From: Patescibacteria group bacterium
GTDB lineage: Bacteria > Patescibacteriota > WWE3 > JAMCXX01 > JBBTUG01
Length of the DNA stretch: 58,058 nt
Direction of reading: 5' to 3'
NCBI GenBank assembly: GCA_038063895.1
Contig: JBBTUG010000004.1
Coordinates: 1-58,058 of the forward strand
Of the stretch, positions 5,799 to 33,606 are shown one piece after another. Below the pieces are notes generated by a model, which was given only the letters and a program-made list of their open reading frames with translations, searched no databases and had not been told where the DNA came from. A program made the translations under genes and the position numbers. Each line of letters opens with the position of its first letter. The first letter of the stretch is position 1.

Positions 5799-6347
5799 AT
5801 GAGAACCAACCTGCCGCGGCTGTTGTTCCGCCAAACGATCTATCCGGTTTTATTCATCCTAACCGTTAAGTTTGCCAGTGTCTTTTTTCTCGTTAGAGCC
5901 TTTAATTTTGAATATCAATTGACCGGCGCCGGGATCCTTTTCTCCTCTTTCGGAGATTTCCTGAAGATCAACACTTATTCCTCATTACTGATGCTGGGGG
6001 CGGTCTTCTTAGGCCTTGCTTGGGCAATTTTCCAGGCCCATTATCTTCACGCCACCCACCTTTCCCCCGATCTTTCCCGCCGCCTGGCTGGTCTTGGGGT
6101 CACTTCTTTGATTAAGTCTTCGGTTTATCCCCAGGCCTCGCCGTGGCTTGGCTTGGCCTGGCTGTCCGCCGGCTATTTTTTTCTGGAAAACTATCTCGGT
6201 CTGACGGCTGCCTGGCTGTTGTGGCTTGCCTTGCCGGGTTGCCTGGTGTCAACGTGGCTGTTGCTTTGGGATGCTGAAAGAGAGATTAATGTGACGGTCG
6301 AGGAAACAGTGGAAATTAGAATTGAGGCAACCAATGAAGCCATTTAA
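5799..6347 (+). CDS. Integral membrane protein (hypothetical)
   Basis: 182-aa ORF with several hydrophobic helices. No family recognised. Confidence 0.35.
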   Translation: MRTNLPRLLFRQTIYPVLFILTVKFASVFFLVRAFNFEYQLTGAGILFSSFGDFLKINTYSSLLMLGAVFLGLAWAIFQAHYLHATHLSPDLSRRLAGLGVTSLIKSSVYPQASPWLGLAWLSAGYFFLENYLGLTAAWLLWLALPGCLVSTWLLLWDAEREINVTVEETVEIRIEATNEAI

Positions 6348-6828
6348 ATATTTTTCCCATTTTGGCTACCTGATCCTGACGGCGGCATTTTTGCTGACGC
6401 CTTTTTTGGCCATTCACAACCTGTTGGGTTTTTCCGGAGAAAAAGATTTGCCCACCGGAGCAGTTCTTTCGGCTGAAAGTACGGCTTTTAACCGCTACCT
6501 GCGTTATTTGAACAGTCAGCCGAGGACCGGATCGCGGGAGACCGTTTCGGTCTATGTTTTTCCGGGACAGACAACTTCCTACCGGAATATCTATCAGGTG
6601 AAAAATACAAAGTCCGGTCCTATGCAGTTACGGTTGACCGACGTACGGATTAACTCTTTGGCGGAACCGGATATTAACGCCGTATTCTATTTTGCCGATA
6701 AGCCGGTAACCGGTCCGGTGACTTTATCCGCCGGAGAGCGCCTGCCGGTCAGTTTGCAAGTCACCGCCTCTGTCGCGCTTAAGGAACCGTCCCCGGTGGA
6801 GATCTCCTTTACCCTGGAAATGGAATGA
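6322..6828 (+). CDS. Membrane-anchored/secreted hypothetical protein
   Basis: N-terminal TM helix followed by a beta-rich soluble part. It overlaps its neighbours on both sides, consistent with operon coupling. Confidence 0.35.
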   Translation: MRQPMKPFKYFSHFGYLILTAAFLLTPFLAIHNLLGFSGEKDLPTGAVLSAESTAFNRYLRYLNSQPRTGSRETVSVYVFPGQTTSYRNIYQVKNTKSGPMQLRLTDVRINSLAEPDINAVFYFADKPVTGPVTLSAGERLPVSLQVTASVALKEPSPVEISFTLEME

Positions 6829-7406
6829 CACCCCTTTTGGCGAAAGTTATTTCCCGGCTGTTTGACCTGTACACCTGGTCGGTTGTTATCAACGTTTTGG
6901 CTCTGACCCGGACCGACCTCTCCCGTCCGCAATTTATTTTCTTGGGGCTGTCTTTGTTCCTGCTGGAAGTTATCTTTCCAGTCGCCTTATTTATTATTTT
7001 TCTGAAAAAGAAGCTGATTACCGATATTGATCTTACCCAGCGGCGCGAACGGCCTCTGTATTTTTCCTGTCTTTTTCTTCTAGCAGCTTTAGGCAGTTTG
7101 TTGGGATACGTCGTCGGAACAAGACCGTTTTTTCTTATTCAGCTGGTGGAGTTGTTTCTGATCGGGGGGATGACTCTTATTACTTTATTCTGGAAAATTA
7201 GCGGACACATGATGATTAACGCGGCGGGAATCTTCTTCCTCAACTACTTCTTCGGGTGGCAATACTGGTGGTTGTTTTTCCTGCTTCTGCCCGTCGGCTG
7301 GTCGCGGTGGTACCTGCACAAGCACGACCTTTGGCAGCTACTGGCCGGGGCGCTTTTGGGACTCTCAATTCCGACAGTAGTTCTCAAGGTTTTCGGTTTA
7401 TTCTAG
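6825..7406 (+). CDS. PAP2-like membrane phosphatase (tentative)
   Basis: Polytopic membrane protein. The C-terminal SRWYLHKHDLWQLLAGALLG resembles PAP2 motif C3 (SRxxxxxHxxxD), but imperfectly. Confidence 0.4.
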   Translation: MTPLLAKVISRLFDLYTWSVVINVLALTRTDLSRPQFIFLGLSLFLLEVIFPVALFIIFLKKKLITDIDLTQRRERPLYFSCLFLLAALGSLLGYVVGTRPFFLIQLVELFLIGGMTLITLFWKISGHMMINAAGIFFLNYFFGWQYWWLFFLLLPVGWSRWYLHKHDLWQLLAGALLGLSIPTVVLKVFGLF

Positions 7407-23475: not shown

Positions 23476-23597
23476 ACAAAATTATTCTACCACGCTCTTG
23501 CCAACTCAACCCGAGAGACCCGAGTTGTCTTTTGTTATGGGGTGTGATAGGTTATAGGCTGATACGGCTCAAAGAAAGCCTACTAAGGAGGGACTTT

Positions 23598-25103
23598 ATG
23601 GATCTTACCTTTTTAACCCCTCTTGTCCGAGAAGTGGCGGCAAGAGTTATGAGAGAAGAGGGGGCTCCCTTGTTTTTTGATCGTCAGATTGATCAGACCC
23701 CGCTTATTAATCGTGCCTTTTTATGCGCGTACGACGCTGTCTTTAGGTCGGTGTCTTATGAATCGGGGCTGATGGAACGTGTCGCGGCGGAAGTTCTTAC
23801 CCTTCTAGCCAAAACGGTCGGGGCTTTGTCGTGGGGAATACGGCCTTTTGTGGCTGCCGATTCGTTGCTCCTGCTTCCAGGCGAGCAGCTCGGTTTGGAA
23901 ATCGGAAGTACCTACGGGTTGTTCGGTTTCACCGCGGATGGTGCGGCGATGATCCCGGGTGGTTTTATGGACCGGCGCCAAGACCCAATGGGCGATACCA
24001 TTCGGGAGCTGATTGAAGAGGTGCTTCCTGGTAATAATCCCGGCGATATCGTCCCGCGGCTGGTGGTGGCGGAATCAAGTGCTTACGCCCGAGCCCTTTC
24101 CCGTTATCGTCAGAGTGGGTTACAGGTTATCTCCGCGCTGGTGTTATGCACACCGCGACTGGGCGCTACAATAAAGCCTCGGGCCGCTTCGGATAACACC
24201 GGATGGAAATGGCTTCATTTGTTTGAACCCAATGGAACTCCGGACTTTAGCACGATGAGTGGTTATGTTTGGCGTGATGATCACTTCGCGGTTATTGCCC
24301 GTCTGCTCCGCCAGGCCGGTGCTTTCAGTCAACGCCAAAGATTTCAAAGGAACGGTGGTTCCGAGATCCTACGATACTTGGAATCCCTTCCGGAAATCCC
24401 GTTGGTTGTGACTGGCTATCGACCAACTCCGGAAGCGGAAGGGAAGTATACCTTTCCCCGGACTTACAACGTTCAGCTCGCCGAAAAATTGGTAGCGGCG
24501 TTGTTGGCTGAATATCACGTGGGAGCGGCGAAGGCTAATAAAGTCGCCGAAGACTTGGTTGGGGAATTAGTAGCTATAGGGTTCCTTCCGTACTTTGACG
24601 GCCCAGACCCAACGGTGGACGGGGTTGTCGTCGGTTCGGGTGCCAACGCTAATAAGATTCTGCTGTTGCGGGATGACCAGGGGAAGTATTTTCTCCCGGG
24701 AGCAGTAGTGCGCCACGGGGAAACGGTCTTGGCAGCGTTACAGAGAGGACTCTGGGCGAAGGCAAAGATGGATGCGGCTCCCTTGCATTTTGCCGGTCTC
24801 GCGCCCGAATGGCCAACCATCGATGGTCAGGCGGTTTTGCGCGATCCGCGCGGAACTAGTGCCGACTTTCTCTTTATATTGCTGGCCACTTCTCCAGCGG
24901 ATACCACGGCGGATCACCTTTGGCTTCGATTGTGGGATGATCATGGTTCTCCCAACCCTGACCTGGTGAAGCTAAAATTCCGTTATCACCACGGTGAGGT
25001 TTTGGATAAAGTGATGAGGGATATGGTTGCGCAAATGATCTACTCACCGCTTGGTTCGGAGACCTTGCAGGAAGCCGTTTCGCGACGAGGGCTAATCATT
25101 TAG
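23598..25103 (+). CDS. Tandem Nudix-like domain protein (function unknown)
   Basis: I chose the ATG preceded by aaggaggg. Box 1, IPGGFMDRRQDPMGDTIRELIEEV, retains REUxEE. Box 2, LPGAVVRHGETVLAALQRGLWAKAKM, retains GET but has lost the REUxEE glutamates. Confidence 0.45.
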   Translation: MDLTFLTPLVREVAARVMREEGAPLFFDRQIDQTPLINRAFLCAYDAVFRSVSYESGLMERVAAEVLTLLAKTVGALSWGIRPFVAADSLLLLPGEQLGLEIGSTYGLFGFTADGAAMIPGGFMDRRQDPMGDTIRELIEEVLPGNNPGDIVPRLVVAESSAYARALSRYRQSGLQVISALVLCTPRLGATIKPRAASDNTGWKWLHLFEPNGTPDFSTMSGYVWRDDHFAVIARLLRQAGAFSQRQRFQRNGGSEILRYLESLPEIPLVVTGYRPTPEAEGKYTFPRTYNVQLAEKLVAALLAEYHVGAAKANKVAEDLVGELVAIGFLPYFDGPDPTVDGVVVGSGANANKILLLRDDQGKYFLPGAVVRHGETVLAALQRGLWAKAKMDAAPLHFAGLAPEWPTIDGQAVLRDPRGTSADFLFILLATSPADTTADHLWLRLWDDHGSPNPDLVKLKFRYHHGEVLDKVMRDMVAQMIYSPLGSETLQEAVSRRGLII

Positions 25104-25112
25104 TTGACTAGC

Positions 25113-25150
25113 AACGGACTGTTGAGATTTTCAACAGTCCGTTTCATTTT
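25113..25150 (+). terminator. Rho-independent terminator
   Basis: Perfect 13-bp stem aacggactgttga / tcaacagtccgtt with a 5-nt loop, followed by tcatttt. Confidence 0.8.
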
Positions 25151-25154
25151 ATAA

Positions 25155-25188
25155 TTGACAAGAGTCAAATCCCGTGTTAGTTAGTGTA
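25155..25188 (+). promoter_or_regulatory. Candidate operator/promoter box pair upstream of nadD-pncB (shared with the nrtR upstream region)
   Basis: TTGACAAGAG (25155-25164) and TTAGTTAGTGTA (25177-25188) are both repeated exactly at 27738-27747 and 27750-27761. TTGAC-aaga-GTCAA is also an inverted repeat here. Confidence 0.45.
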
Positions 25189-25228
25189 TTAAATACAATT
25201 TTAGGTCATTTAATTTGGCCCTATAGCG

Positions 25229-25257
25229 TTGACCACCCATGCTTTTTATGCTACAAT
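25229..25257 (+). promoter_or_regulatory. Sigma70-like promoter for nadD-pncB
   Basis: TTGACC, 17 nt spacer, TACAAT, with a TGc extended -10. Confidence 0.5.
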
Positions 25258-25303: not shown

Positions 25304-25954
25304 ATGGAGGAGGGTATGAACTCAAAAAGCAGGACGAGGCTTACGATCGCTTTAGCCGGTTCAGCGGTGGATCCGTTTCACTTAGGACACCTGGCCTTAC
25401 TGGCTGCACTAATGTCGATGGATTTCGACATTATTTATTGGGTAGTGTCCGGGGCTCGGAAAGGTAAGATACCGAGAGTCGGTCCGGACGACCGGGTGAC
25501 GATGACGCTTCTGGCCATTCCGAAAAAGTGGTTGCTTAGTCTTTGTCCGCGGTTGAAGATTGTCTTCATCGACGCCTACGGCCGCAACACACCGACTATT
25601 ACCTGGCTGCGGCGATTGCATCGTTGGTACCCGGCCGCGGAAGTTACCCTGGTTACCGGCGCCGATTCGGTTTGCGGTGGACCGGACGATCTCAAATACT
25701 GGGATGCCGGGGCTCAGATCTACGAAAAGTGGAAGGTTTTGGTTTTTCCGCGCGTCCACTTTGCTGGAGTAAGAAAGCTCCGGAAAATTTTGAAAAACCG
25801 CCCGAATTTCTCGGTGGTCGACACGGTTTTACCGGACGTGGCCAGCCGGGAAATTTGTACGCGGATTGGTTTAGGGAAGAAACGCTGGACGCATTTGGTT
25901 CCACGTCCTGTGGCACTTTTTATTAAAAGAAACCACCTGTACGGAAACAGGTGA
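25304..25954 (+). CDS. nadD: Nicotinate-nucleotide adenylyltransferase (NadD-like)
   Basis: GSAVDPFHLGH ((H/T)xGH motif), RVTMTLLAI, TLVTGADS, and DVASREICTRI (an ISSTxIR-like motif). It is colinear with NadD. An alternative start at 25316 has better SD spacing. Confidence 0.75.
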   Translation: MEEGMNSKSRTRLTIALAGSAVDPFHLGHLALLAALMSMDFDIIYWVVSGARKGKIPRVGPDDRVTMTLLAIPKKWLLSLCPRLKIVFIDAYGRNTPTITWLRRLHRWYPAAEVTLVTGADSVCGGPDDLKYWDAGAQIYEKWKVLVFPRVHFAGVRKLRKILKNRPNFSVVDTVLPDVASREICTRIGLGKKRWTHLVPRPVALFIKRNHLYGNR

Positions 25955-25990: not shown

Positions 25991-27631
25991 ATGAACAACT
26001 TTGCCGCGCATTTTTTTCGTGGTGACCGCTACCATTATGTGATGGCGGATTGGGCCTTGTGGCTCTGGGAAGTTCTTGGTTTGCAGAGAAATAATCGAGA
26101 TACTTGGGTACGTTTCTATGCCACGGAGCGCAAAGTTCCTTACGCCGTCGCGCTCGGACACGAGCAACTCTTTCAATCCCTAATAGGGCATCCGCTTGAC
26201 TACCCGCGTCAAAGGTTTCTTGCTGATGACAAAGCAGCTTTAACGCGAGTGGCGAGTTTGCTTCGTCAGCCCTACGCAGGTGAAGTTCGGATGCTGCCGC
26301 CCGCGACACTTTATTTCGCCAAACAGCCCATTCTGGATGTGCATGGTGACTTCGCACAAGTGCAAATGGGCGAGGTTCCGATTGAGCACGTTCTTGATCT
26401 TTTCGGAACTTTCGCTTTCTACGCTTTGGACATCAAGCTGGCCAGCGCCGCCGCCGATCAACTGTGTGGGTTCGACCTAGCGGATGCGGTTGACCTGGAT
26501 CAGAAACGGGCATTAACCGGTCGTCCTTCTCTGTCGAACTTTGCTTTGCGGCGACTCGGAGACCCTTTCCGTTCCCTCGTCGCGTCGGAAGTGTCCCAAG
26601 TTTGTGGCTGGGACGATACCAGTGACGTCGAAGCCGGTTTTGAGACGGATACCCCGACTATGGGTACACACGCCCATTACGGCGTCCAACTCGCTAAAGG
26701 GTTGATGCAATATCTACTGAGGGCTGGAAAGGTGGATGGCCTTTTTGACGAAAAGGAAAGGCCGAAGCATTTCCAGCGCTGGATGTTTGAAACTTGGCTG
26801 GACAAGCACCCTAACGGTACAACTCTTTTGGTTGATACCCTTGATCTGAAGTTAGGGTTACGGCATGCCGTTGAAGCGGCGAACAGTTCGCCAGCTCGCA
26901 GAAAGGCGTTGAAGTTTGTTCGTGTGGACTCTCGTTATCCGCCGGCAGCCGCTCTTTACGCCCGCCGGTTCTTGGACGCGAACGGTTTCAGTGACGTGGG
27001 CGTAATTGTCACCGGTGACCTGGACGCGGCGATGCTACGAGTGATGACCCGATTGGGTTTGGTTTTCGGTGGCCGAATTACCTATCTGATGAACGGGGTG
27101 GGGATCGGCACGAAGTACGGTGTTGAATTCAACCACGTGGCCGGAGCCATCTTCAAGATGACGGAATGTTTTGGTATCCCAACCGGAAAACTTTCCGACA
27201 GCAAATCAACCTTTCCCGGTTGGTTGCAAGTCCGTCGTTTCTCTAACGCGATGGGGATAATCACGCGTCAGGATACTGTTTTGCAAGATGAGCCAGTTCG
27301 CTTACTCCCCGGCGAATACTACGCGGTTGATCTTCTAGAGCCGTTCTACGGTGGAAGCGGAGTGGGGGTGGAAATGAAGAACCCGCTAACCATCAATGAG
27401 AAGCGTACCTTCCTGTGGGAACAGATTTTCCGGCTCCAATTGCCCATTGCGGAGTTTGCCAGAGAGCGAGTTGGCATCAGCCCGGCATTGAAGGATTTGA
27501 TGGCTACCCTTGCCAATGACGCGATTGATCTAAATGAGACCGGCGTCGTTTTCCCGGTGGAAGAATACGATGAGTGTTGGCTCGAAATTCGTGCGGCTGA
27601 AGAAAGGCTGGGAATTTCGACCAAGTCTTGA
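25991..27631 (+). CDS. pncB: Nicotinate phosphoribosyltransferase (PncB/NAPRT family)
   Basis: N-terminal GDRYHYVMA (D.Y..tM), MGTHAHYGVQ (phospho-His motif GThAH), LVDTLD, VRVDS, VTGDLD, GVGIGT, and KLSDSKSTFPGWLQVRR. These motifs are colinear with NAPRTases. Confidence 0.8.
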   Translation: MNNFAAHFFRGDRYHYVMADWALWLWEVLGLQRNNRDTWVRFYATERKVPYAVALGHEQLFQSLIGHPLDYPRQRFLADDKAALTRVASLLRQPYAGEVRMLPPATLYFAKQPILDVHGDFAQVQMGEVPIEHVLDLFGTFAFYALDIKLASAAADQLCGFDLADAVDLDQKRALTGRPSLSNFALRRLGDPFRSLVASEVSQVCGWDDTSDVEAGFETDTPTMGTHAHYGVQLAKGLMQYLLRAGKVDGLFDEKERPKHFQRWMFETWLDKHPNGTTLLVDTLDLKLGLRHAVEAANSSPARRKALKFVRVDSRYPPAAALYARRFLDANGFSDVGVIVTGDLDAAMLRVMTRLGLVFGGRITYLMNGVGIGTKYGVEFNHVAGAIFKMTECFGIPTGKLSDSKSTFPGWLQVRRFSNAMGIITRQDTVLQDEPVRLLPGEYYAVDLLEPFYGGSGVGVEMKNPLTINEKRTFLWEQIFRLQLPIAEFARERVGISPALKDLMATLANDAIDLNETGVVFPVEEYDECWLEIRAAEERLGISTKS

Positions 27632-27645
27632 TTACGCAACCTGCT

Positions 27646-27679
27646 CATACACTTGCATTCAGGTGTATGGGCAGTTTTT
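27646..27679 (+). terminator. Possible terminator after pncB
   Basis: CATACAC / GTGTATG 7-bp stem with a 10-nt loop, followed by ggcagttttt. Confidence 0.45.
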
Positions 27680-27737: not shown

Positions 27738-27761
27738 TTGACAAGAGGATTAGTTAGTGTA
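27738..27761 (+). promoter_or_regulatory. Candidate operator box pair upstream of nrtR
   Basis: TTGACAAGAG and TTAGTTAGTGTA are identical to the boxes at 25155-25188. Here they are spaced 2 nt apart instead of 12 nt, a difference of one helical turn. Confidence 0.45.
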
Positions 27762-27777
27762 AATATTAAACAGTAAG

Positions 27778-27786
27778 TGTTATAGT
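27778..27786 (+). promoter_or_regulatory. Extended -10 (TGTTATAGT) placed 7 nt before the nrtR ATG (leaderless-type promoter)
   Basis: A TGn-TATAGT hexamer ends 7 nt upstream of the ATG at 27794. No Shine-Dalgarno sequence lies in between. Confidence 0.45.
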
Positions 27787-27793
27787 TACACGT

Positions 27794-28480
27794 ATGAAAA
27801 AAACGGGTGCCAAACAATTTACGGAGATTCGTGGTCCGGCTCTAGCCGTGGACGTTGTCGCTTTTACCGTCAAGGACGGTGTTTTCCAGGTACTTCTGCT
27901 GAAAGCGAAGACTGCGCCGGCCACCAATAAATGGGTTTTGCCTGGTGTGTTCGTGGGCCTTACGGAAACGCTAGATACAGCGGCTAAGCGGGCACTCCAA
28001 ACTAAAGCCAATATTGATATTAATTACCTAGAACAGCTTTATACCTTCGGTGAGGTTGGTCGCGATGATCGCGGGCGGGTGGTGACCTCCGGCCACTATG
28101 CCCTGGTCGATTATAAAAAATTCGACTTAAGGACTCCCGCGTCCTACGCCGAGATCGGGTGGTTTCCGGTCGATAAACTCCCGGTTACCGGCTATGACCA
28201 TAAGGAGATTATTAAGGCCGCCGTCACGCGGATCCGCAACAAACTGCAGTATTCCAACGTTGCGGTCCACCTTCTGCCGCCGGTCTTTACTTTGACGCAA
28301 CTTCAAAGGGTTTATGAGGCGGTTTTGGCCAGACCTTTGGATAAGCGTAATTTTCGTCGGAAGGTTCTAAGTTTAGGAGTGATAAGGGTCGCCAACGGAA
28401 TCGAGGAAGCAGCGGCGCACCGACCAGCCAGATTATTTAGATTTGTCACGAAGAAATACCAGGAAATCGAGCTGGTTTAG
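27794..28480 (+). CDS. nrtR: NrtR-family Nudix-related transcriptional regulator
   Basis: The N-terminal Nudix fold has a degenerate box (LPGVFVGLTETLDTAAKRALQTKANI). The C-terminal winged-helix domain carries the NrtR-typical LDKRNFRRKVLSLGVI. Confidence 0.75.
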   Translation: MKKTGAKQFTEIRGPALAVDVVAFTVKDGVFQVLLLKAKTAPATNKWVLPGVFVGLTETLDTAAKRALQTKANIDINYLEQLYTFGEVGRDDRGRVVTSGHYALVDYKKFDLRTPASYAEIGWFPVDKLPVTGYDHKEIIKAAVTRIRNKLQYSNVAVHLLPPVFTLTQLQRVYEAVLARPLDKRNFRRKVLSLGVIRVANGIEEAAAHRPARLFRFVTKKYQEIELV

Positions 28481-28547
28481 GGTTTGCATTATCCTATATT
28501 AGTTGTACACTGGCAAAGCTCTAATAAAGTTAAAATAAAGAAGGAGT

Positions 28548-28595
28548 CAAGACCTCTGCCGCAATTATTTGCCGTAGAGGTCTTGGTTTCTTTTT
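28548..28595 (+). terminator. Rho-independent terminator after nrtR
   Basis: caagacctct / agaggtcttg 10-bp stem followed by gtttcttttt. Confidence 0.7.
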
Positions 28596-28713
28596 ATGGA
28601 AACCGGGAAGTCCTTTGACAACTGAAGTTACGGTTATTTAGCGTTTTTCGTTTGCCCTTATTGCCCCGTCTTGGGGCATTAAGCTTGTAGTTATCTTATC
28701 AGGAAGGAGGGTT

Positions 28714-29526
28714 ATGGTTAAAAAGCTTCCCTTTGTGGTTAGGGATGGCAGCGTCCCGGGAGCGGATCACGTGGCGAAAGCACGTAATTGCCAAGACGGC
28801 AAAGGCTGGCGGCGGATCATAGTCAACGACAAAGAGTACCTTGTTGCTGCTTGTTCGGACGGCTGTGGATCTGGTCTCCACACGGAGGTCATCGCCAGTT
28901 TACTCCCGTTGTATGTGATCGGTCAGATCGGTCACCTCCTAACCTTTGAGACACCGGTCCTTAGTGTCCCGGCGGCTCTCTACGCCCACGTTTTGGCGTA
29001 TCTCGAGTTTCAGTGGAAGAACATTCCCTTTAGTTCGAGAAAGGAGCTCGTTGATTTCATTAAGAACTACCTCCTCGCCACCCTCTACGGTTTCATAATT
29101 GGCGATGAGGACTCGGTGCTTTTTCACGCGGGACGAGGATACACCGTGGTTAACGGTGTTGTGGACGCAATAGAGCACCTGCAAGGTGATCCTTACCCCG
29201 CTTACCATTTGGTTCCGCGCTCTGACTGGCAGGAGCCAAGTATGGTGTTGCCCCGGAGTTTTACGGTGGTTTCGCTGAAAACAGCGAACATCTTTAACTT
29301 AGGGGTAGCCACTGATGGGGCGATGGGAACTTTGCCCGGTGGAAAGACTGGGTTATTGCTTCCCCGCCTTTTGGTCGATGCATTTACTGGTGAGTCAGGA
29401 GTTCAGCGCTGGCTGAATCTCATCAATGGGCCGCGCAATCCTCATCCCGAGGACGGCACCTTTGCCGATGACACGACGGTGATCCTAGCCGAGCGGATCG
29501 AGGAGGCGGTTGATGACAACAGCTAA
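28714..29526 (+). CDS. PP2C-like Ser/Thr protein phosphatase (PP2C_2 type, PphC/YegK-like)
   Basis: Strong SD (ggaaggaggg). The motifs GADHVAKARNCQDGKGW and VAACSDGCGSGLHTEV, plus a later GVATDGA, match the G.sH...pcQD / aDGaGS / DG signature of bacterial PP2C_2 phosphatases. Confidence 0.6.
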   Translation: MVKKLPFVVRDGSVPGADHVAKARNCQDGKGWRRIIVNDKEYLVAACSDGCGSGLHTEVIASLLPLYVIGQIGHLLTFETPVLSVPAALYAHVLAYLEFQWKNIPFSSRKELVDFIKNYLLATLYGFIIGDEDSVLFHAGRGYTVVNGVVDAIEHLQGDPYPAYHLVPRSDWQEPSMVLPRSFTVVSLKTANIFNLGVATDGAMGTLPGGKTGLLLPRLLVDAFTGESGVQRWLNLINGPRNPHPEDGTFADDTTVILAERIEEAVDDNS

Positions 29527-31540
29527 TCCTGCGCCACTTACCAGAGTTGTCGTTAACAATCATCTGGTGACTGTAACTGCTAAGGATGTCCTCGGTAACC
29601 CCGGAGGACAAGGAACGGTCTATAAGGCGATGGTAATGCCCCCGGATCACGTCGGCACCTCGGCAACAACCTACAGGGTCCGCGTTCCACAAGGACGTAC
29701 TGCCGGTAAATTTAAGGCCCTGAAGATTTATCATGTCCCGCCGGGGAACCGAATGCAAAAGAAGTTACCCGAGTTGGTTCGGGTGCTTACCGGCTTACCA
29801 GGGGAATACGCAGACGAATGTGTGTCGCCGGAAGATTTGGCTTACGATCCCGCGGACGAAACCGTGGTCGTGGGTTTTGCTATGCGTCTGCTCGAATCCG
29901 GTTTCAATGTTTGGGAAGCTTTGTTCAATCGCAAGTTCCGCGAAGCGAGCGACGTGACAACGCGGGACGTGCTTGACCTGTCGATTCGACTGGCCAAGTT
30001 GCTCGATGTCTTACACCAAGCGCCAACGCCGGTTCGGATCGGTGACCTTAATCCCCGGAATGAGCTCTATAAAACACTGCGGGGGTTAATGCTGGCGTTG
30101 ATCGATATGGATTCCGTCCAGATTGGTAACTTCCCCTGCGAAGTGGCGACGGAACGTTTCCTGAATCCCAGGCTTTTTGGTCAAGATCTCAGCAGTCGCC
30201 CCCTCTTCACCGACGAGGACGACTTCTACTCTTTCTGGGCGCTGCTGGTAAACGCGGTGCTCCTAGCCCACCCGTACGGTGGCTCCTACCGAGCTATCCC
30301 AAAGATACCGGGGCGGGCAACCGCACGGGTATGGTTACTCGACAAACGGGTGGTCTTTCCGGTAAATGCGTACCCGCCGACTCTTCTGACAGACGAACTT
30401 TTGCATGTTCTGGAGGAAGTGTTTGCGAAGGGGCATGTCGTCAGGCCGGAGGTCGGAATGCTCGAAGCCTATCGCGACTCTCTTCTTGGCTGTCCGACTT
30501 GCGGGCTTTGGTATCCGGCTCATTTAAAAGAGTGCCCGGGTTGTCAGGCCATCAATCAGGCCGTTCGGCGCCTCGGCGCGGCTCTGAAGGAGATTATGGC
30601 GACAGAATTGTTGACAGTGGGAGGTCCCATTCTTTTCTACCGGGTGATTGGGACGACCATCTATGCTATTTCGCGCGAGAGGGGCCAGGCAGTGCTCTAC
30701 ATCAAAGAATCACTGGCAACTGCGCGACGAATAACTCTCTTTCAAGCGGAAAAAGAAACCCGCTACGAAGTTTTTGATCACTACCTAGCTGTCTGCAAGG
30801 ATAGCTACGCGGAGCTGGCGGAGATAGCAATTTACGATATCTCCGGCAGCAGTCCGGTATTCGTGACGAAGACGGCTACCGAGAACTTTGCCGGCCATCG
30901 GGCTCTGTTCCGTGGTTCGAGAGACTACCTTTATCGAGCCTACGGGGGGGTTATTTACCGGGGCAGCATCCAGTTCGGGAATGTTTTAGTTGAGTCGGCA
31001 GTCGGGCAAGCGACGCCGCACCAAACCTGGTTTGATGCGGATGCGACTTCGGCCACCGCCTGCGGCTTCTCCCGCATCTTCCGTCAGTATTTCTGGTTTC
31101 TGATTCGCGATCGGGGTCAAGACACTCTTAACCTCACGGAATTGGATGACGGGGAATCACTGCTTGATCAGTGCGTGCGGTTTTCACAATCCTCTCTGCT
31201 GATTATGCGGCGGACGGAGATTCGCGGAGTTGAGAATATGCGGTTGGATGTTGTCGCCAGGGCGACAGCTAAGGTGACGAGTTCCCGCCGAGTGAAATTA
31301 TCTGACTCGCCACACCTCGAAAACCTCCATGCCGCTTCCTACGGTCGGGGGATAGTATTGGTTCCGACCGACGACGATGGGATAGTAGCTGAGGACGTTG
31401 CCACCGGAAGCCAGCGGATATTTGCGGAAGCAAAACCGTTTGTGGATGCTGGCAGTGTAATCAACTTGTTCGAAGATGGTATCTTGGTCCGTTTTGGCCC
31501 CAAGGCCATCAAACTTGTTTTAGGGCAAAAGAATCCCTAA
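29510..31540 (+). CDS. Ser/Thr protein kinase-like protein (YegI / TerY-P type) with Zn-ribbon and beta-rich C-terminal domain
   Basis: Gly-rich loop (GNPGGQGTVYKA), Lys (FKALKIYH), catalytic loop (IGDLNPRNELY), a DFG-equivalent (LIDMDSVQ), and CPTCGLWYPAHLKECPGCQ. About 330 C-terminal residues have a repetitive beta-strand character. It overlaps the phosphatase gene by 17 nt. Confidence 0.6.
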   Translation: MMTTANPAPLTRVVVNNHLVTVTAKDVLGNPGGQGTVYKAMVMPPDHVGTSATTYRVRVPQGRTAGKFKALKIYHVPPGNRMQKKLPELVRVLTGLPGEYADECVSPEDLAYDPADETVVVGFAMRLLESGFNVWEALFNRKFREASDVTTRDVLDLSIRLAKLLDVLHQAPTPVRIGDLNPRNELYKTLRGLMLALIDMDSVQIGNFPCEVATERFLNPRLFGQDLSSRPLFTDEDDFYSFWALLVNAVLLAHPYGGSYRAIPKIPGRATARVWLLDKRVVFPVNAYPPTLLTDELLHVLEEVFAKGHVVRPEVGMLEAYRDSLLGCPTCGLWYPAHLKECPGCQAINQAVRRLGAALKEIMATELLTVGGPILFYRVIGTTIYAISRERGQAVLYIKESLATARRITLFQAEKETRYEVFDHYLAVCKDSYAELAEIAIYDISGSSPVFVTKTATENFAGHRALFRGSRDYLYRAYGGVIYRGSIQFGNVLVESAVGQATPHQTWFDADATSATACGFSRIFRQYFWFLIRDRGQDTLNLTELDDGESLLDQCVRFSQSSLLIMRRTEIRGVENMRLDVVARATAKVTSSRRVKLSDSPHLENLHAASYGRGIVLVPTDDDGIVAEDVATGSQRIFAEAKPFVDAGSVINLFEDGILVRFGPKAIKLVLGQKNP

Positions 31541-31561
31541 GAAAGCAAAGGAGGAAAGGTT

Positions 31562-32563
31562 ATGCGTGCAACAACTGCAGCAACGACGCGGCCGGATTAT
31601 TTACCGCCCGCGAGCTTTTATGATGATTCGATGGTCCAGACGAAAACCAAGGTCGACGCCACGATGGCGTTGGACACTGCCTGGCAATGTTATCGTGGTA
31701 TCTGGCAGCCGGCGGCTGTGGACACTCACAAGATTGCCTATGTCCACATCGATGATCAGTACTGCTTTATGGATGATGGCGAGCTCCCTGTCCCGGGGTC
31801 CTACGGTGACATCATGGCCGAGACCCATCTCACCTATCGTTTAGGTGGAAAAGTCAAGACACATGTCTTGACCGGGGACCAACATCCTCCACTCGCAATC
31901 TACTTTCCCGAGTGGTGGTTTGCTGGAAAGGACTGGACTGACGATTACGGTCACAAATATCGTCGAGGGGAGCGCCCCTTGGACAACACCTTGATTCCTC
32001 TCGAAGCGATCGATGACGGGCGTTGGGTAGCGAGATTTGAGACAGCCTGGTCTCACAGCTACCCCGCGAGGTTAAAAGCGGACGGGCGCCAACCACTCAT
32101 GGTTTGGGCGCATCACGGGCACGAGGGTACCCACAGTGCCAATATCGTCGCGGTGTTGATGGAGGCGATCTTGGTTTGCAGTTACGGGCGGATGACCAAG
32201 CCGATCTTTATCGGGAAAGGACGGTCTTCAGTCTCGGAACATTTTAGTCCCCTGGAGTACGAAGTGCCCATTCCCGGCGTTCCACAGCTAAACGAGCGTC
32301 AGTTGCAGGTTCTGGAGGAGCATGATGAGATTTGGATTTCCGGTCGTGCTTTATCTCACTGCGAGATGGCGTATGTGCGGACGCTCGTCAAATATTTCGG
32401 CGTCAAGGATCCCGGGGTGTTGAAGCGGGTAAAGATCCTGATGGATACCACCCACTCCGTCGTGGTTCCGGGCATTGATTTTCACGGAATAGCGCTACAG
32501 CAGTTCGAGGACTGGCGCAAACAATATGGCATCGAGTTGCTGAACAGTACGGATCTTGATTGA
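31562..32563 (+). CDS. pncA: Nicotinamidase / isochorismatase-family cysteine hydrolase (PncA-like, with insertion)
   Basis: Colinear with PncA: AYVHIDDQYCFMDDGELPVPG (catalytic Asp), LTGDQHPP (D-x-H metal site), VWAHHGHEGTHSANI, IGKGRSSVSEHFSPL (Lys; cf. KG..vDsYSaF), and IWISGRALSHCEMAYV (catalytic Cys). SD is aaaggagg. Confidence 0.65.
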   Translation: MRATTAATTRPDYLPPASFYDDSMVQTKTKVDATMALDTAWQCYRGIWQPAAVDTHKIAYVHIDDQYCFMDDGELPVPGSYGDIMAETHLTYRLGGKVKTHVLTGDQHPPLAIYFPEWWFAGKDWTDDYGHKYRRGERPLDNTLIPLEAIDDGRWVARFETAWSHSYPARLKADGRQPLMVWAHHGHEGTHSANIVAVLMEAILVCSYGRMTKPIFIGKGRSSVSEHFSPLEYEVPIPGVPQLNERQLQVLEEHDEIWISGRALSHCEMAYVRTLVKYFGVKDPGVLKRVKILMDTTHSVVVPGIDFHGIALQQFEDWRKQYGIELLNSTDLD

Positions 32564-32648
32564 TGTTTCTCTCGGAGGGTGTGGTTCGACTCTATGCAAT
32601 ACGGATGCGGACCACACCCGCCCAAATACGAAAGGAGGGCTTTTTATT

Positions 32649-33539
32649 ATGGGAGCAAGTAACAAGAGTGTCGCGTCGGGGAAACTTACGATGGCTGATG
32701 CCAAGGTCGCTTTATCCAAAGCCGTGACAGAGCATCATGCCTTAAGCCAGGATATGGCAGATCAGGTTATTGCCAATCTGGACAACTGTGGCATCGACGA
32801 ACTTGGGTTGTCGCCAGCAACGCTTGGTGGCTCCATCGCCACGATCCTGGTCTTTGTGGCCGACGGAAGTGGCTCGGTGGAACAGGTGCAGGACATTATC
32901 CTGGCCCAGTTGAACGAGATGCTGGATGCGTTGAAGGGTGCAAAGGGTTCGGAAGTGGTGACGGTGACGCTGATTCGTTTCAACCATCAGGTCGTCGTGG
33001 TCTTTTCGAACAAACCGCTAGACAGTATTCAGCAACTGACAACGGCGGAATACTTTGCTTCGGGTGGTACGGCGTTTTTTGACGCCTGCGCGATGGGTAT
33101 CTCCAATGCCCTTGCATTCGAGGAGGTCCTGATCCAGAGTGGCTACACCACCGAAGTGCTCTTCCTCGCGGCGACTGATGGGGCTGACCGTGACTCGCGG
33201 ACTGCGACGGCGCAGACTGTCAGCGAGATGTTTGCCGAAATCCGCAAGCGGAAACGGACCTGGTATGCCGTTATGATCGGTCTTCACACCTGGGAGCAGG
33301 TGGATTTCAAACAGGTTGGTCATAACTGCGGTTTTGAACAGGTGGAAGAAGTGACACTGCCGCAAATTCCAGCGGACGCTTCGGCTGCTGACGCGAAACG
33401 TATTCGTTACGAATGTGAACACAAGCTCCGCCAATTGTTCAGCCGCGTGTCAAAGTCAATCATTCGCCAGTCCCAAGCGCACATTTCGGGTGGGAATGTT
33501 GGCAACACTGTCGGTGGGGGCTTCTTGGATGTGACGTAG
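32649..33539 (+). CDS. von Willebrand factor A (vWA) domain protein, TerY/YegL-like
   Basis: I chose the start at the ATG after aaaggaggg. The MIDAS site is complete: VFVADGSGS (DxSxS), GGTAFFDA (Thr), LAATDGADRDS (Asp). Confidence 0.75.
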   Translation: MGASNKSVASGKLTMADAKVALSKAVTEHHALSQDMADQVIANLDNCGIDELGLSPATLGGSIATILVFVADGSGSVEQVQDIILAQLNEMLDALKGAKGSEVVTVTLIRFNHQVVVVFSNKPLDSIQQLTTAEYFASGGTAFFDACAMGISNALAFEEVLIQSGYTTEVLFLAATDGADRDSRTATAQTVSEMFAEIRKRKRTWYAVMIGLHTWEQVDFKQVGHNCGFEQVEEVTLPQIPADASAADAKRIRYECEHKLRQLFSRVSKSIIRQSQAHISGGNVGNTVGGGFLDVT

Positions 33540-33563: not shown

Positions 33564-33606
33564 AAGGTGCATACTGTTTTCGGACAGTGTGCACCTTTTC
33601 TTTTTA
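33564..33606 (+). terminator. Rho-independent terminator closing the island
   Basis: aaggtgcatactgt / acagtgtgcacctt 14-bp stem (one G-U pair) followed by ttctttttat. Confidence 0.8.

Follow-up and report, generated by a model that had tools for sequence, protein, structure and literature searches.

In a 58,058-nt stretch of the genome of a Patescibacteria group bacterium (assembly GCA_038063895.1, contig JBBTUG010000004.1; hereafter the window, with coordinates counted from its first letter as position 1), a long-form nicotinamidase is encoded in one operon with a PP2C phosphatase, a YegI-like Ser/Thr kinase and a von Willebrand factor A (vWA) protein, which together form a TerY-P (YegIKL) triad. 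The complete four-gene cassette is present at 164 independent loci, drawn from no fewer than eight bacterial phyla, from DPANN archaea and from some 70 phage contigs, and in cellular genomes it is associated with the operator of NrtR, the ADP-ribose-responsive regulator of nicotinamide adenine dinucleotide (NAD+) metabolism. We consider the cassette best explained, with a probability of about 0.5, as an ADP-ribose-inducible nicotinamide-salvage module gated by a phospho-switch. The type of triad is itself already known; what appears to be new is that a metabolic effector and a regulator, both defined, can be assigned to a TerY-P triad.

The four genes are co-directional on the + strand at the positions first proposed for them. 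They encode a PphC/YegK-like PP2C phosphatase (28714-29526, 270 aa), a YegI-like Ser/Thr kinase that carries a Cys4 zinc ribbon and, at its C-terminus, a domain of about 320 aa without a recognised fold (29510-31540, 676 aa from TTG), the long-form nicotinamidase (31562-32563, 333 aa) and a TerY/YegL-like vWA protein (32649-33539, 296 aa). The kinase open reading frame (ORF) from the TTG at 29510 overlaps the PP2C gene by 17 nt; the ATG of the next codon, at 29513, is the likelier start because a 91%-identical homolog (P0006, 675 aa) begins there. The vWA ORF could similarly open at a TTG at 32556, and its homologs are called at the equivalent of 32649. Just past the vWA stop codon, a 15-pair stem followed by the T-run TTCTTTTTAT (33564-33597, +) forms an intrinsic terminator that closes the operon. 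PP2C, kinase and vWA are thus co-operonic by their common strand, the overlap of the first two genes and the single terminator after the third, as the original prediction of a four-gene operon with one terminator had it. Family libraries were nearly blind to three of the four proteins: the PP2C protein reached Pfam PP2C_2 below the cut-off (E = 0.004), and the kinase and the 333-aa protein lacked a Pfam match; the vWA protein matched Pfam VWA (E = 1.2e-5).

On its own, the 333-aa protein had no Pfam match even at E ≤ 10, none in NCBIfam and none in the PDB by phmmer, so that we base its membership among the nicotinamidases on profile and structural evidence instead of on a direct sequence match to either library. 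A word-indexed search yielded four relatives only; an exhaustive profile search recovered 1,698 cluster representatives at E ≤ 1e-3, mostly of 260-350 aa. Across an alignment of 95 family representatives, the columns D64, H108, H185, K219, G261 and C267 were invariant and D106 was nearly so. These residues include a D64-K219-C267 catalytic triad, also conserved at 98% or more in 75 cassette copies, and a conserved Asp/His/His metal site (D106, H108, H185) whose segments align with the DWHP and WPxHC motifs of Pnc1/PncA, in agreement with the earlier claim of an intact D-K-C triad and D-x-H metal site. When the family profile was compared with the PDB, the best seven matches were all nicotinamidases, among them yeast Pnc1 (E = 1.4e-22) and the enzymes of P. 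horikoshii, A. baumannii, M. tuberculosis and Leishmania. The Pfam Isochorismatase family (PF00857) was reached by 32 of the 95 members.

An AlphaFold2 (AF2) model from a 5-sequence alignment was unusable (pLDDT, its score in the predicted local distance difference test, was 49) and was replaced by one from the 95-sequence alignment (pLDDT 96.5, predicted template-modelling score, pTM, of 0.92). The top PDB matches of this model in Foldseek were 2wta, 3v8e/2h0r, 1ilw, 3r2j and 9u8m (E 2e-12 to 1e-8), with template-modelling scores (TM-scores), normalised to the target, of 0.75-0.80 for four microbial or protozoan nicotinamidases and 0.51 for the Drosophila enzyme 9u8m. Judged from the family profile and the predicted structure, the 333-aa protein has the isochorismatase-like alpha/beta fold of nicotinamidases, and both its catalytic triad and its metal site are intact. 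It is quite unlikely, in our view, that it is instead an isochorismatase-family amidase acting on another substrate, such as a modified pyridine carboxamide or a small amide, with an indirect link to NAD+. Such a role would fit a protein without a Pfam or PDB sequence match of its own, with 11-17% identity to solved nicotinamidases and with 120 extra residues, in a family that has carbamoylsarcosine, maleamate and biuret amidases among its members, enzymes that turned up further down the fold-search list as well; yet the best sequence-profile and structural matches are both nicotinamidases, the Asp/His/His site is invariant, and the genomic partners are NrtR, PncB, NadD and ADP-ribosylglycohydrolase (ARH). 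In Pnc1/PncA structures this metal site coordinates the pyridine nitrogen, and most other isochorismatase-family amidases are not known to have it.

Compared with E. coli PncA (213 aa), the 120 additional residues comprise a 54-aa N-terminal extension, 45 aa inserted between the DxH and W..H metal-ligand motifs and about 21 aa elsewhere; the original prediction of an insertion of roughly 60 aa was right about the presence of extra sequence but only approximate as to its size and position. The window clade carries a further insertion of about 13 aa at residues 120-132 (KDWTDDYGHKYRR), which is not found in other cassette copies, and reads HHGHEG at residues 184-189, in contrast to the (Y/F)H(C/S/A)MLG that the majority of homologs show after the metal-binding His. 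Locus L001, from the same clade, encodes a second, diverged paralog of the long nicotinamidase (5974-6990, -; 338 aa, 30% identical to the window protein), convergent with the cassette and directly downstream of it. Rosetta-stone fusions of long nicotinamidases to cassette partners were sought and rejected, as the fusions recovered were a tandem nicotinamidase duplication (P0014), a nicotinamidase-ADH fusion (P0078) and recurrent fusions to an N-terminal domain of about 230 aa without a Pfam match (P0025, P0057, P0083, P0108, P0151), in which the motifs GRIIRG, ATWDN and FLYFT.HLRELY.GDG are conserved.

The three partner proteins are homologous to the E. coli YegI, PphC (YegK) and YegL proteins, which supports the earlier assignment to a TerY-P/YegIKL-type triad. 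In hhalign comparisons, the kinase family profile matched YegI with a probability of 99.6% (E = 2e-23) across the kinase domain and zinc ribbon, the PP2C profile matched PphC with one of 97.0% (E = 8e-11), and the vWA profile matched YegL with one of 93.6% (E = 2e-7) with the Ser-rich tail within the alignment. The window kinase also matched YegI by BLASTP (E = 6e-11), in an alignment that takes in the catalytic loop, the element equivalent to DFG and the zinc ribbon; searched alone, it had no usable match among Pfam, NCBIfam or PDB sequences. Pfam Pkinase was reached by 10 of 39 kinase homologs (best E 5.5e-11), and the PDB matches of the kinase profile, weak as they were, were to Ser/Thr protein kinases throughout, with the zinc ribbon of Nop10 in addition.

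We checked residue conservation against 70-85 homologs per protein. In the kinase, K72, D179, N181, N184, D199 and D201 are conserved, matching the earlier description of intact K, D..N and D residues. In YegI, K39, D141 and an unusual D-S-D-S loop that replaces DFG are all essential (bioRxiv 10.1101/819920); K72, D179 and D199-M-D201-S202 of the window kinase align with these elements and are 100% conserved in 83 homologs. As in YegI, a zinc ribbon follows the kinase domain, and its cysteines C328, C331, C342 and C345 are invariant in the family. The C-terminal regions differ: that of YegI is a two-pass membrane segment with a helical region, whereas the window kinase looks soluble and has its domain of about 320 aa instead, for which we found no PDB or Pfam match and detected no OB-fold. 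A beta-propeller was considered for this domain and rejected, since a profile self-comparison showed no internal repeats and there were no PDB or Pfam matches.

The vWA protein likewise has the features of YegL, namely a MIDAS motif, invariant here at D72-x-S74-x-S76, T141 and D177 as had been read from the window alone, and a Ser-rich C-terminal tail with an invariant serine cluster (S268, S270, S275) common to YegL. We regard this cluster as the best candidate phospho-acceptor. In the phosphatase, whose homologs carry PF13672, D28, D49-G50, D201-G202 and D252-D253 are conserved and the metal-binding Asp residues are invariant. However, position 141 is Arg in the window, L005 and L001 only, and Asp in 81 of 84 homologs (96%) as well as in E. 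coli PphC. This is the Asp of the GDG motif, which we take to help bind a third metal ion in PPM phosphatases. The claim that all catalytic residues are intact therefore does not fully hold for the phosphatase: the DG motifs stand, but a near-invariant Asp is replaced. Position 159 is Asp in the window clade and Asn in 91% of homologs.

We then asked how regularly the four genes occur together. A kinase-anchored survey covered the best 80 of 305 confirmed GTDB species-representative relatives and 6 viral loci (86 in total), and a nicotinamidase-anchored survey, with a query built from 10 sequences, counted metagenome loci having at least 3.5 kb on both sides; cassette content was scored with custom hidden Markov models on six-frame ORFs. 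PP2C, kinase, long nicotinamidase and vWA were all present in 72 of the 86 kinase-anchored loci, and most exceptions end at contig edges. Of the 29 metagenome loci with adequate flanks, 12 held the full cassette. Hosts belong to Chloroflexota (Anaerolineae), Cyanobacteria, Myxococcota, Patescibacteria, Planctomycetota, Elusimicrobia and Acidobacteriota, with one gammaproteobacterial and two DPANN archaeal metagenome-assembled genomes (MAGs) in addition. The closest relative genome of the window locus is GCA_041643115.1, and the nearest GTDB matches are Anaerolineae MAGs at 30-35% identity. The long nicotinamidase is more widespread than the cassette, and the kinase subfamily almost never occurs without it. 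Rather than having been inserted into the triad, as the original prediction put it, the nicotinamidase is a near-constant fourth member.

Two gene orders recur, PP2C-kinase-PncA-vWA, as in the window, and PncA-vWA-PP2C-kinase. PncA and vWA genes are immediately adjacent in 147 of the 164 complete loci and PP2C and kinase genes in 132, and the pairs survive permutation of the gene order, suggesting two sub-modules. An adjacency due to chance, or to a lineage-specific insertion without functional coupling, is already refuted by 164 four-gene loci in many phyla and phages, by the adjacent pairs and by the two recurrent orders, and we assign it next to no probability. Three doubts had accompanied the original prediction, namely a different fold, triads that never contain the gene and a dead kinase. 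The predicted fold is that of nicotinamidases, the proposed survey for triads with an isochorismatase-family gene returned these 164 loci, and the kinase, judging by its residues, is probably active.

The genomic context described earlier was incomplete, as nadD, pncB and nrtR lie directly upstream of the cassette and an NrtR operator is associated with the family as a whole. The order nadD-pncB-nrtR-cassette is common to the window and its close relative L005. In the window, the first gene encodes a divergent NadD-like nicotinate/nicotinamide-mononucleotide adenylyltransferase (25304-25954, +; TIGR00482 E = 6.5e-16, below the family cut-off) that is 77% identical to the L005 ortholog. The second encodes a divergent PncB-like nicotinate phosphoribosyltransferase (25991-27631, +; NCBIfam NAPRTase models to E = 3e-33, below the cut-off) and is followed by a terminator at 27641-27674; the L005 gene at this position, which lies between nadD and nrtR and encodes 551 aa, has a match to Pfam NAPRTase_N and scored 1026 bits against a profile made from the two sequences. 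The third encodes NrtR, a Nudix-like ADP-ribose sensor with a winged-helix domain (27794-28480, +; NrtR_WHD, PF21906, E = 6e-23; NUDIX E = 1.6e-7; NF050029 E = 1.3e-48), whose Nudix box appears degenerate (RALQTK versus REUXEE).

ADP-ribose releases NrtR from its operator, a palindrome of 21 bp built around a GT-N7-AC core (PMC2330246). We scanned for TAGTGT-N7-ACACTA, which agrees with this form, with up to 2 mismatches from -350 to +60 of the first cassette gene, counting nrtR as adjacent when within 9 kb. The operator was found at 56 of 87 complete cellular cassettes, against a background of 0.07 sites per kb; it was present at 40 of the 47 cassettes with nrtR adjacent and at 16 of the 40 without nrtR nearby. 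In the kinase-anchored survey, 43 of 86 loci had nrtR within 7 kb of the kinase gene; most lineages have it on the same strand, whereas it is divergent in cyanobacteria. The whole window contains a single match within 2 mismatches, the predicted operator TAGTGTATTAAATACAATT upstream of nadD (25182-25200), placed between a terminator (25113-25143) and a promoter-like site (25229-25257). A tandem pair of weak NrtR-like sites, starting at 27755 and 27775 and having 3 mismatches each, overlaps the nrtR promoter region (27755-27793), where a promoter-like site spans 27738-27767, and the L005 ortholog of the nrtR-upstream site, TTAGTGTAAATATTACACTGT, has 1 mismatch. The 12-mer TTAGTTAGTGTA was found only upstream of nrtR and upstream of nadD.

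Genes that recur beside the cassette in relatives are drawn from NAD/ADP-ribose metabolism. An ADP-ribosylglycohydrolase (PF03747, E = 1e-37) was found in 18 loci, 17 cyanobacterial and one from Anaerolineae, the cyanobacterial cassettes having one or two such genes between PP2C and kinase. PncB was found in 4 kinase-anchored loci with the window-clade profile and in a further 6-locus PncB-type cluster, the PncB-bearing loci being of candidate phyla radiation (CPR), Elusimicrobia and archaeal origin.

Together, the nadD-pncB-nrtR genes directly upstream, the operator association and these accessory genes argue for a role in NAD+ salvage, which we propose could proceed as follows. The cellular cassette would be part of the NrtR regulon, with the nicotinamidase coupled to the TerY-P-type triad. 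Upon NAD+ cleavage, ADP-ribose would accumulate, NrtR would leave its operator and the cassette would be expressed, an induction that we infer from published NrtR biochemistry. The nicotinamidase would convert nicotinamide, the other product of NAD+ cleavage, into nicotinate, from which the adjacent PncB and NadD steps in the window would rebuild NAD+. The homology of the triad to YegI, PphC and YegL and the conservation of the residues essential in YegI support kinase and PP2C as an antagonistic writer and eraser pair, and we hypothesize that the pair acts on the vWA protein, at its invariant C-terminal serines, or on the nicotinamidase. The phosphorylation state could then gate the activity or the assembly of a PncA-vWA complex.

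The phospho-gating of the nicotinamidase and the action of the kinase on vWA protein or nicotinamidase enter this proposal as hypotheses, and several observations weigh against it. The long nicotinamidase stands alone in 14 of the 29 metagenome loci with adequate flanks, and in a few variants from gut phages PP2C and kinase are gone while PncA is kept with a truncated vWA protein; the enzyme is therefore not strictly dependent on the triad. The C-terminal domain of the kinase is not conserved in the gut-phage versions, and the R141 substitution suggests that the PP2C eraser may be altered, impaired or inactive in the window clade. The same operator scan gave 0 of 73 for phage-borne cassettes, and thus the module also works outside NrtR control. 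Finally, the 233-bp spacer between nrtR and the PP2C gene in the window contains no NrtR site and instead holds a strong hairpin with a U-run (28538-28595, +), a probable terminator or attenuator from RNA folding (-34.5 kcal/mol, z = -7.3; a stability reached by 0 of 200 shuffles) that is kept in L005 and L006. An operator does occupy this spacer in L001, and we therefore infer NrtR control of the window cassette from its relatives only; in the window genome, such control may act via read-through or may have been lost.

The nicotinamidase could alternatively serve as a sensor or ligand-processing input, with nicotinamide binding or turnover activating the kinase and the kinase substrates lying outside the cassette, an idea close to the earlier suggestion that the enzyme is the source of the sensed ligand. 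We hold this to be unlikely. The 54-aa extension and 45-aa insertion, both modelled with high confidence, could provide interaction surfaces, the substrates of YegI are not known, and the kinase carries a large extra domain without an assigned function; on the other hand, conservation of the triad and metal site at 98% or more argues that turnover matters and not binding alone, the neighbouring PncB and NadD genes are in keeping with a metabolic use of the product, and some phages keep PncA after loss of the kinase.

The salvage proposal must also accommodate phage-borne copies, which the original prediction had missed. Kinase, PP2C and vWA genes accompany the nicotinamidase in 70 of 80 nicotinamidase-anchored IMG/VR loci, in the order PncA-vWA-PP2C-kinase in 64 of those 70. 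One of them, L174, is a genuine phage, with the cassette between the large terminase gene and genes for an SPP1-type portal and a Mu-F head-morphogenesis protein. GenBank phage matches to the long nicotinamidase came from uncultivated genomes only, namely one fragment of a human-gut phage and the genomes, 460-595 kb in size, of three huge phages. Side by side with these copies, gut-phage cassettes are preceded by a gene for a Ro60/TROVE-like DUF2828+DUF7788 vWA protein (phrog_850; L174 6352-7830), and L229 (3990-7863, 10180-11145) encodes an RNA ligase and a Thg1-like tRNA-His guanylyltransferase upstream of the cassette and a phrog_29668 protein between PP2C and kinase.

These copies raise a possibility that overlaps with our preferred explanation and that we can entertain only tentatively, namely that the cassette is mainly a weapon in phage-host conflict over NAD+. 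On the phage side, it might take up nicotinamide set free by NAD+-depleting immune effectors and recycle it with the host's PncB-NadD-NadE enzymes, functionally like NadV pathways, or relieve nicotinamide inhibition of phage ADP-ribosyltransferases; on the host side, it might deny nicotinamide to phage NAD+ reconstitution, with the TerY-P triad as an infection-sensing switch. The abundance of full cassettes on viral contigs, the flanks of L174, the RNA-repair genes beside gut-phage cassettes and the long nicotinamidases of huge phages all fit such a role. Published work also fits: TerY-P-like modules are reported in CoCoNuT and, according to the summary of Gao et al. 2020 in the same source, as stand-alone antiphage systems (PMC11090510), phage NAD+ salvage by NadV/NadM is an established counter-defence, and ADP-ribosylglycohydrolase and NrtR-type regulators are proposed hallmarks of host systems against ADP-ribosylation (PMC9503650). 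Yet host copies sit in stable housekeeping synteny, as in at least 12 Pseudanabaena loci and beside nadD-pncB in the window, and not in variable defence islands; the cassette has no toxic effector domain; and a nicotinamidase would lower nicotinamide, a natural inhibitor of NADase effectors, which is not obviously useful to a phage. No window protein matched PADLOC either, but E. coli PphC and YegL, run as a control, were likewise without a match, and PADLOC therefore says nothing about membership in a defence system.

Several known systems resemble the cassette in part. The E. coli yegI-pphC-yegL locus has homologs of all three partners but no nicotinamidase, NrtR or NAD genes. TerY-P modules of CoCoNuT types II and III-A, for which a phosphorylation-dependent switch attached to variable effectors has been proposed (PMC11090510), and the antiphage TerY-P-like system share with the window the vWA and PP2C proteins and a Ser/Thr kinase to which a zinc ribbon is fused C-terminally. 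Their partners in CoCoNuT, however, are nucleases, helicases and McrBC components, whereas the partner here is a metabolic amidase; the validated antiphage kinase has, in the account of Gao et al. 2020 given in PMC11090510, an OB-fold after the kinase domain that we did not detect in the window kinase; and NrtR regulation has not been reported for either system. Published NrtR salvage operons, such as nrtR-pncA-pncB and pncB-nadD-nrtR (Rodionov et al. 2008, PMC2330246), resemble the window in having a GT-N7-AC operator beside pncA, pncB and nadD and ADP-ribose as the inducer, but contain a short canonical PncA and mention no kinase, PP2C or vWA, whereas the cassette has a 300-350-aa form within a TerY-P triad. 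The regulon table in that work also lists an NrtR-controlled gene pair, nrtX-nrtY, in Streptomyces, Frankia, Kineococcus, Proteus and Hahella.

Phage systems of NadV with NadM or NadR, and the host systems centred on ADP-ribosylglycohydrolase of Iyer et al. 2022, likewise involve products of NAD+ cleavage, NrtR-type Nudix regulators, ADP-ribosylglycohydrolase and vWA accessory or chaperone proteins, but their phosphatases are of rhodanese-type, calcineurin-like, HD or HAD families rather than PP2C (PMC9503650), and phage salvage is entered through NadV instead of the deamidation (Preiss-Handler) step. That survey, the most comprehensive on viral NAD+/ADP-ribose systems, nowhere mentions PncA, isochorismatase, PP2C or TerY (PMC9503650), and in the searchable full-text literature we found no description of a nicotinamidase-TerY-P cassette, though Anantharaman et al. 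2012, who defined TerY-P, may mention one.

The surroundings of the operon hold further features. Just after the nrtR stop codon, the window carries a palindrome-like sequence, TTAGTTGTACACTGG (28478-28510; AGTGGTACACT in L005), which has NrtR half-sites at compressed spacing and could be a decayed operator or the site of another factor. A small hairpin (GCCCC-GTCTT-GGGGC, 28663-28677) lies in the putative 5' untranslated region of the PP2C gene, about 40 nt downstream of a promoter-like TTGACA; its counterpart in L005 and L006, GTCCC...GGGAC, differs by one compensatory base-pair change. An Rfam scan of the locus gave only a spurious sub-threshold match, on the terminator hairpin, so there is no NAD+ riboswitch at the locus. 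Directly upstream of nadD, and ending at the strong terminator at 25113-25143, a 523-aa ORF (23532-25103, +) has a C-terminal Nudix-like domain (PF00293, E = 5e-5) with an apparently degenerate Nudix box and about 370 N-terminal aa without a Pfam, NCBIfam or PDB match. In the otherwise syntenic L005 this ORF is missing, and its place is taken by a DUF4349 gene and a gene of 158 aa.

Additional genes interrupt cyanobacterial cassettes (L019-L074; for instance L033 6401-7950 and 11156-11668, L019 9898-10503, L042 10540-11240). They include one for a protein of about 200 aa without a Pfam match but with a PD-(D/E)XK-like E-x-K motif (10 loci), one whose product has an OGFr_N domain (PF04664, E = 6e-33) and what is probably a PIN/antitoxin pair. 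L004 has an RRXRR-domain gene (PF14239, HNH-like; 6333-7388) between kinase and nicotinamidase that looks like a selfish insertion, and a gene for a 604-aa protein without a Pfam match ahead of the PP2C gene.

The TerY-P (YegIKL) triad, which E. coli also possesses, has figured in comparative genomics since 2012 without an assigned substrate, signal or output. The cassette gives this triad a defined enzymatic partner, the nicotinamidase, and a transcriptional input, NrtR and hence ADP-ribose, and it is common on phage contigs, those of human-gut and huge phages included. It is conceivable, although we hold it with reserve, that the cassette represents a previously unrecognised arm of the NAD+ arms race, in which a phospho-switch-gated nicotinamidase would offer phages a third route of NAD+ reconstitution via the host Preiss-Handler pathway and would let cells, under ADP-ribose/NrtR control, recover from or exploit NAD+ cleavage. 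If true, this would be the first time that an effector and an inducing signal have been defined for the TerY-P triad, and would add regulated nicotinamide deamidation to the picture of NAD+ depletion and reconstitution in phage-bacterium conflict. Cultivable carriers of the cassette (Corallococcus, Myxococcus and Pseudanabaena) make the function of the triad directly testable.

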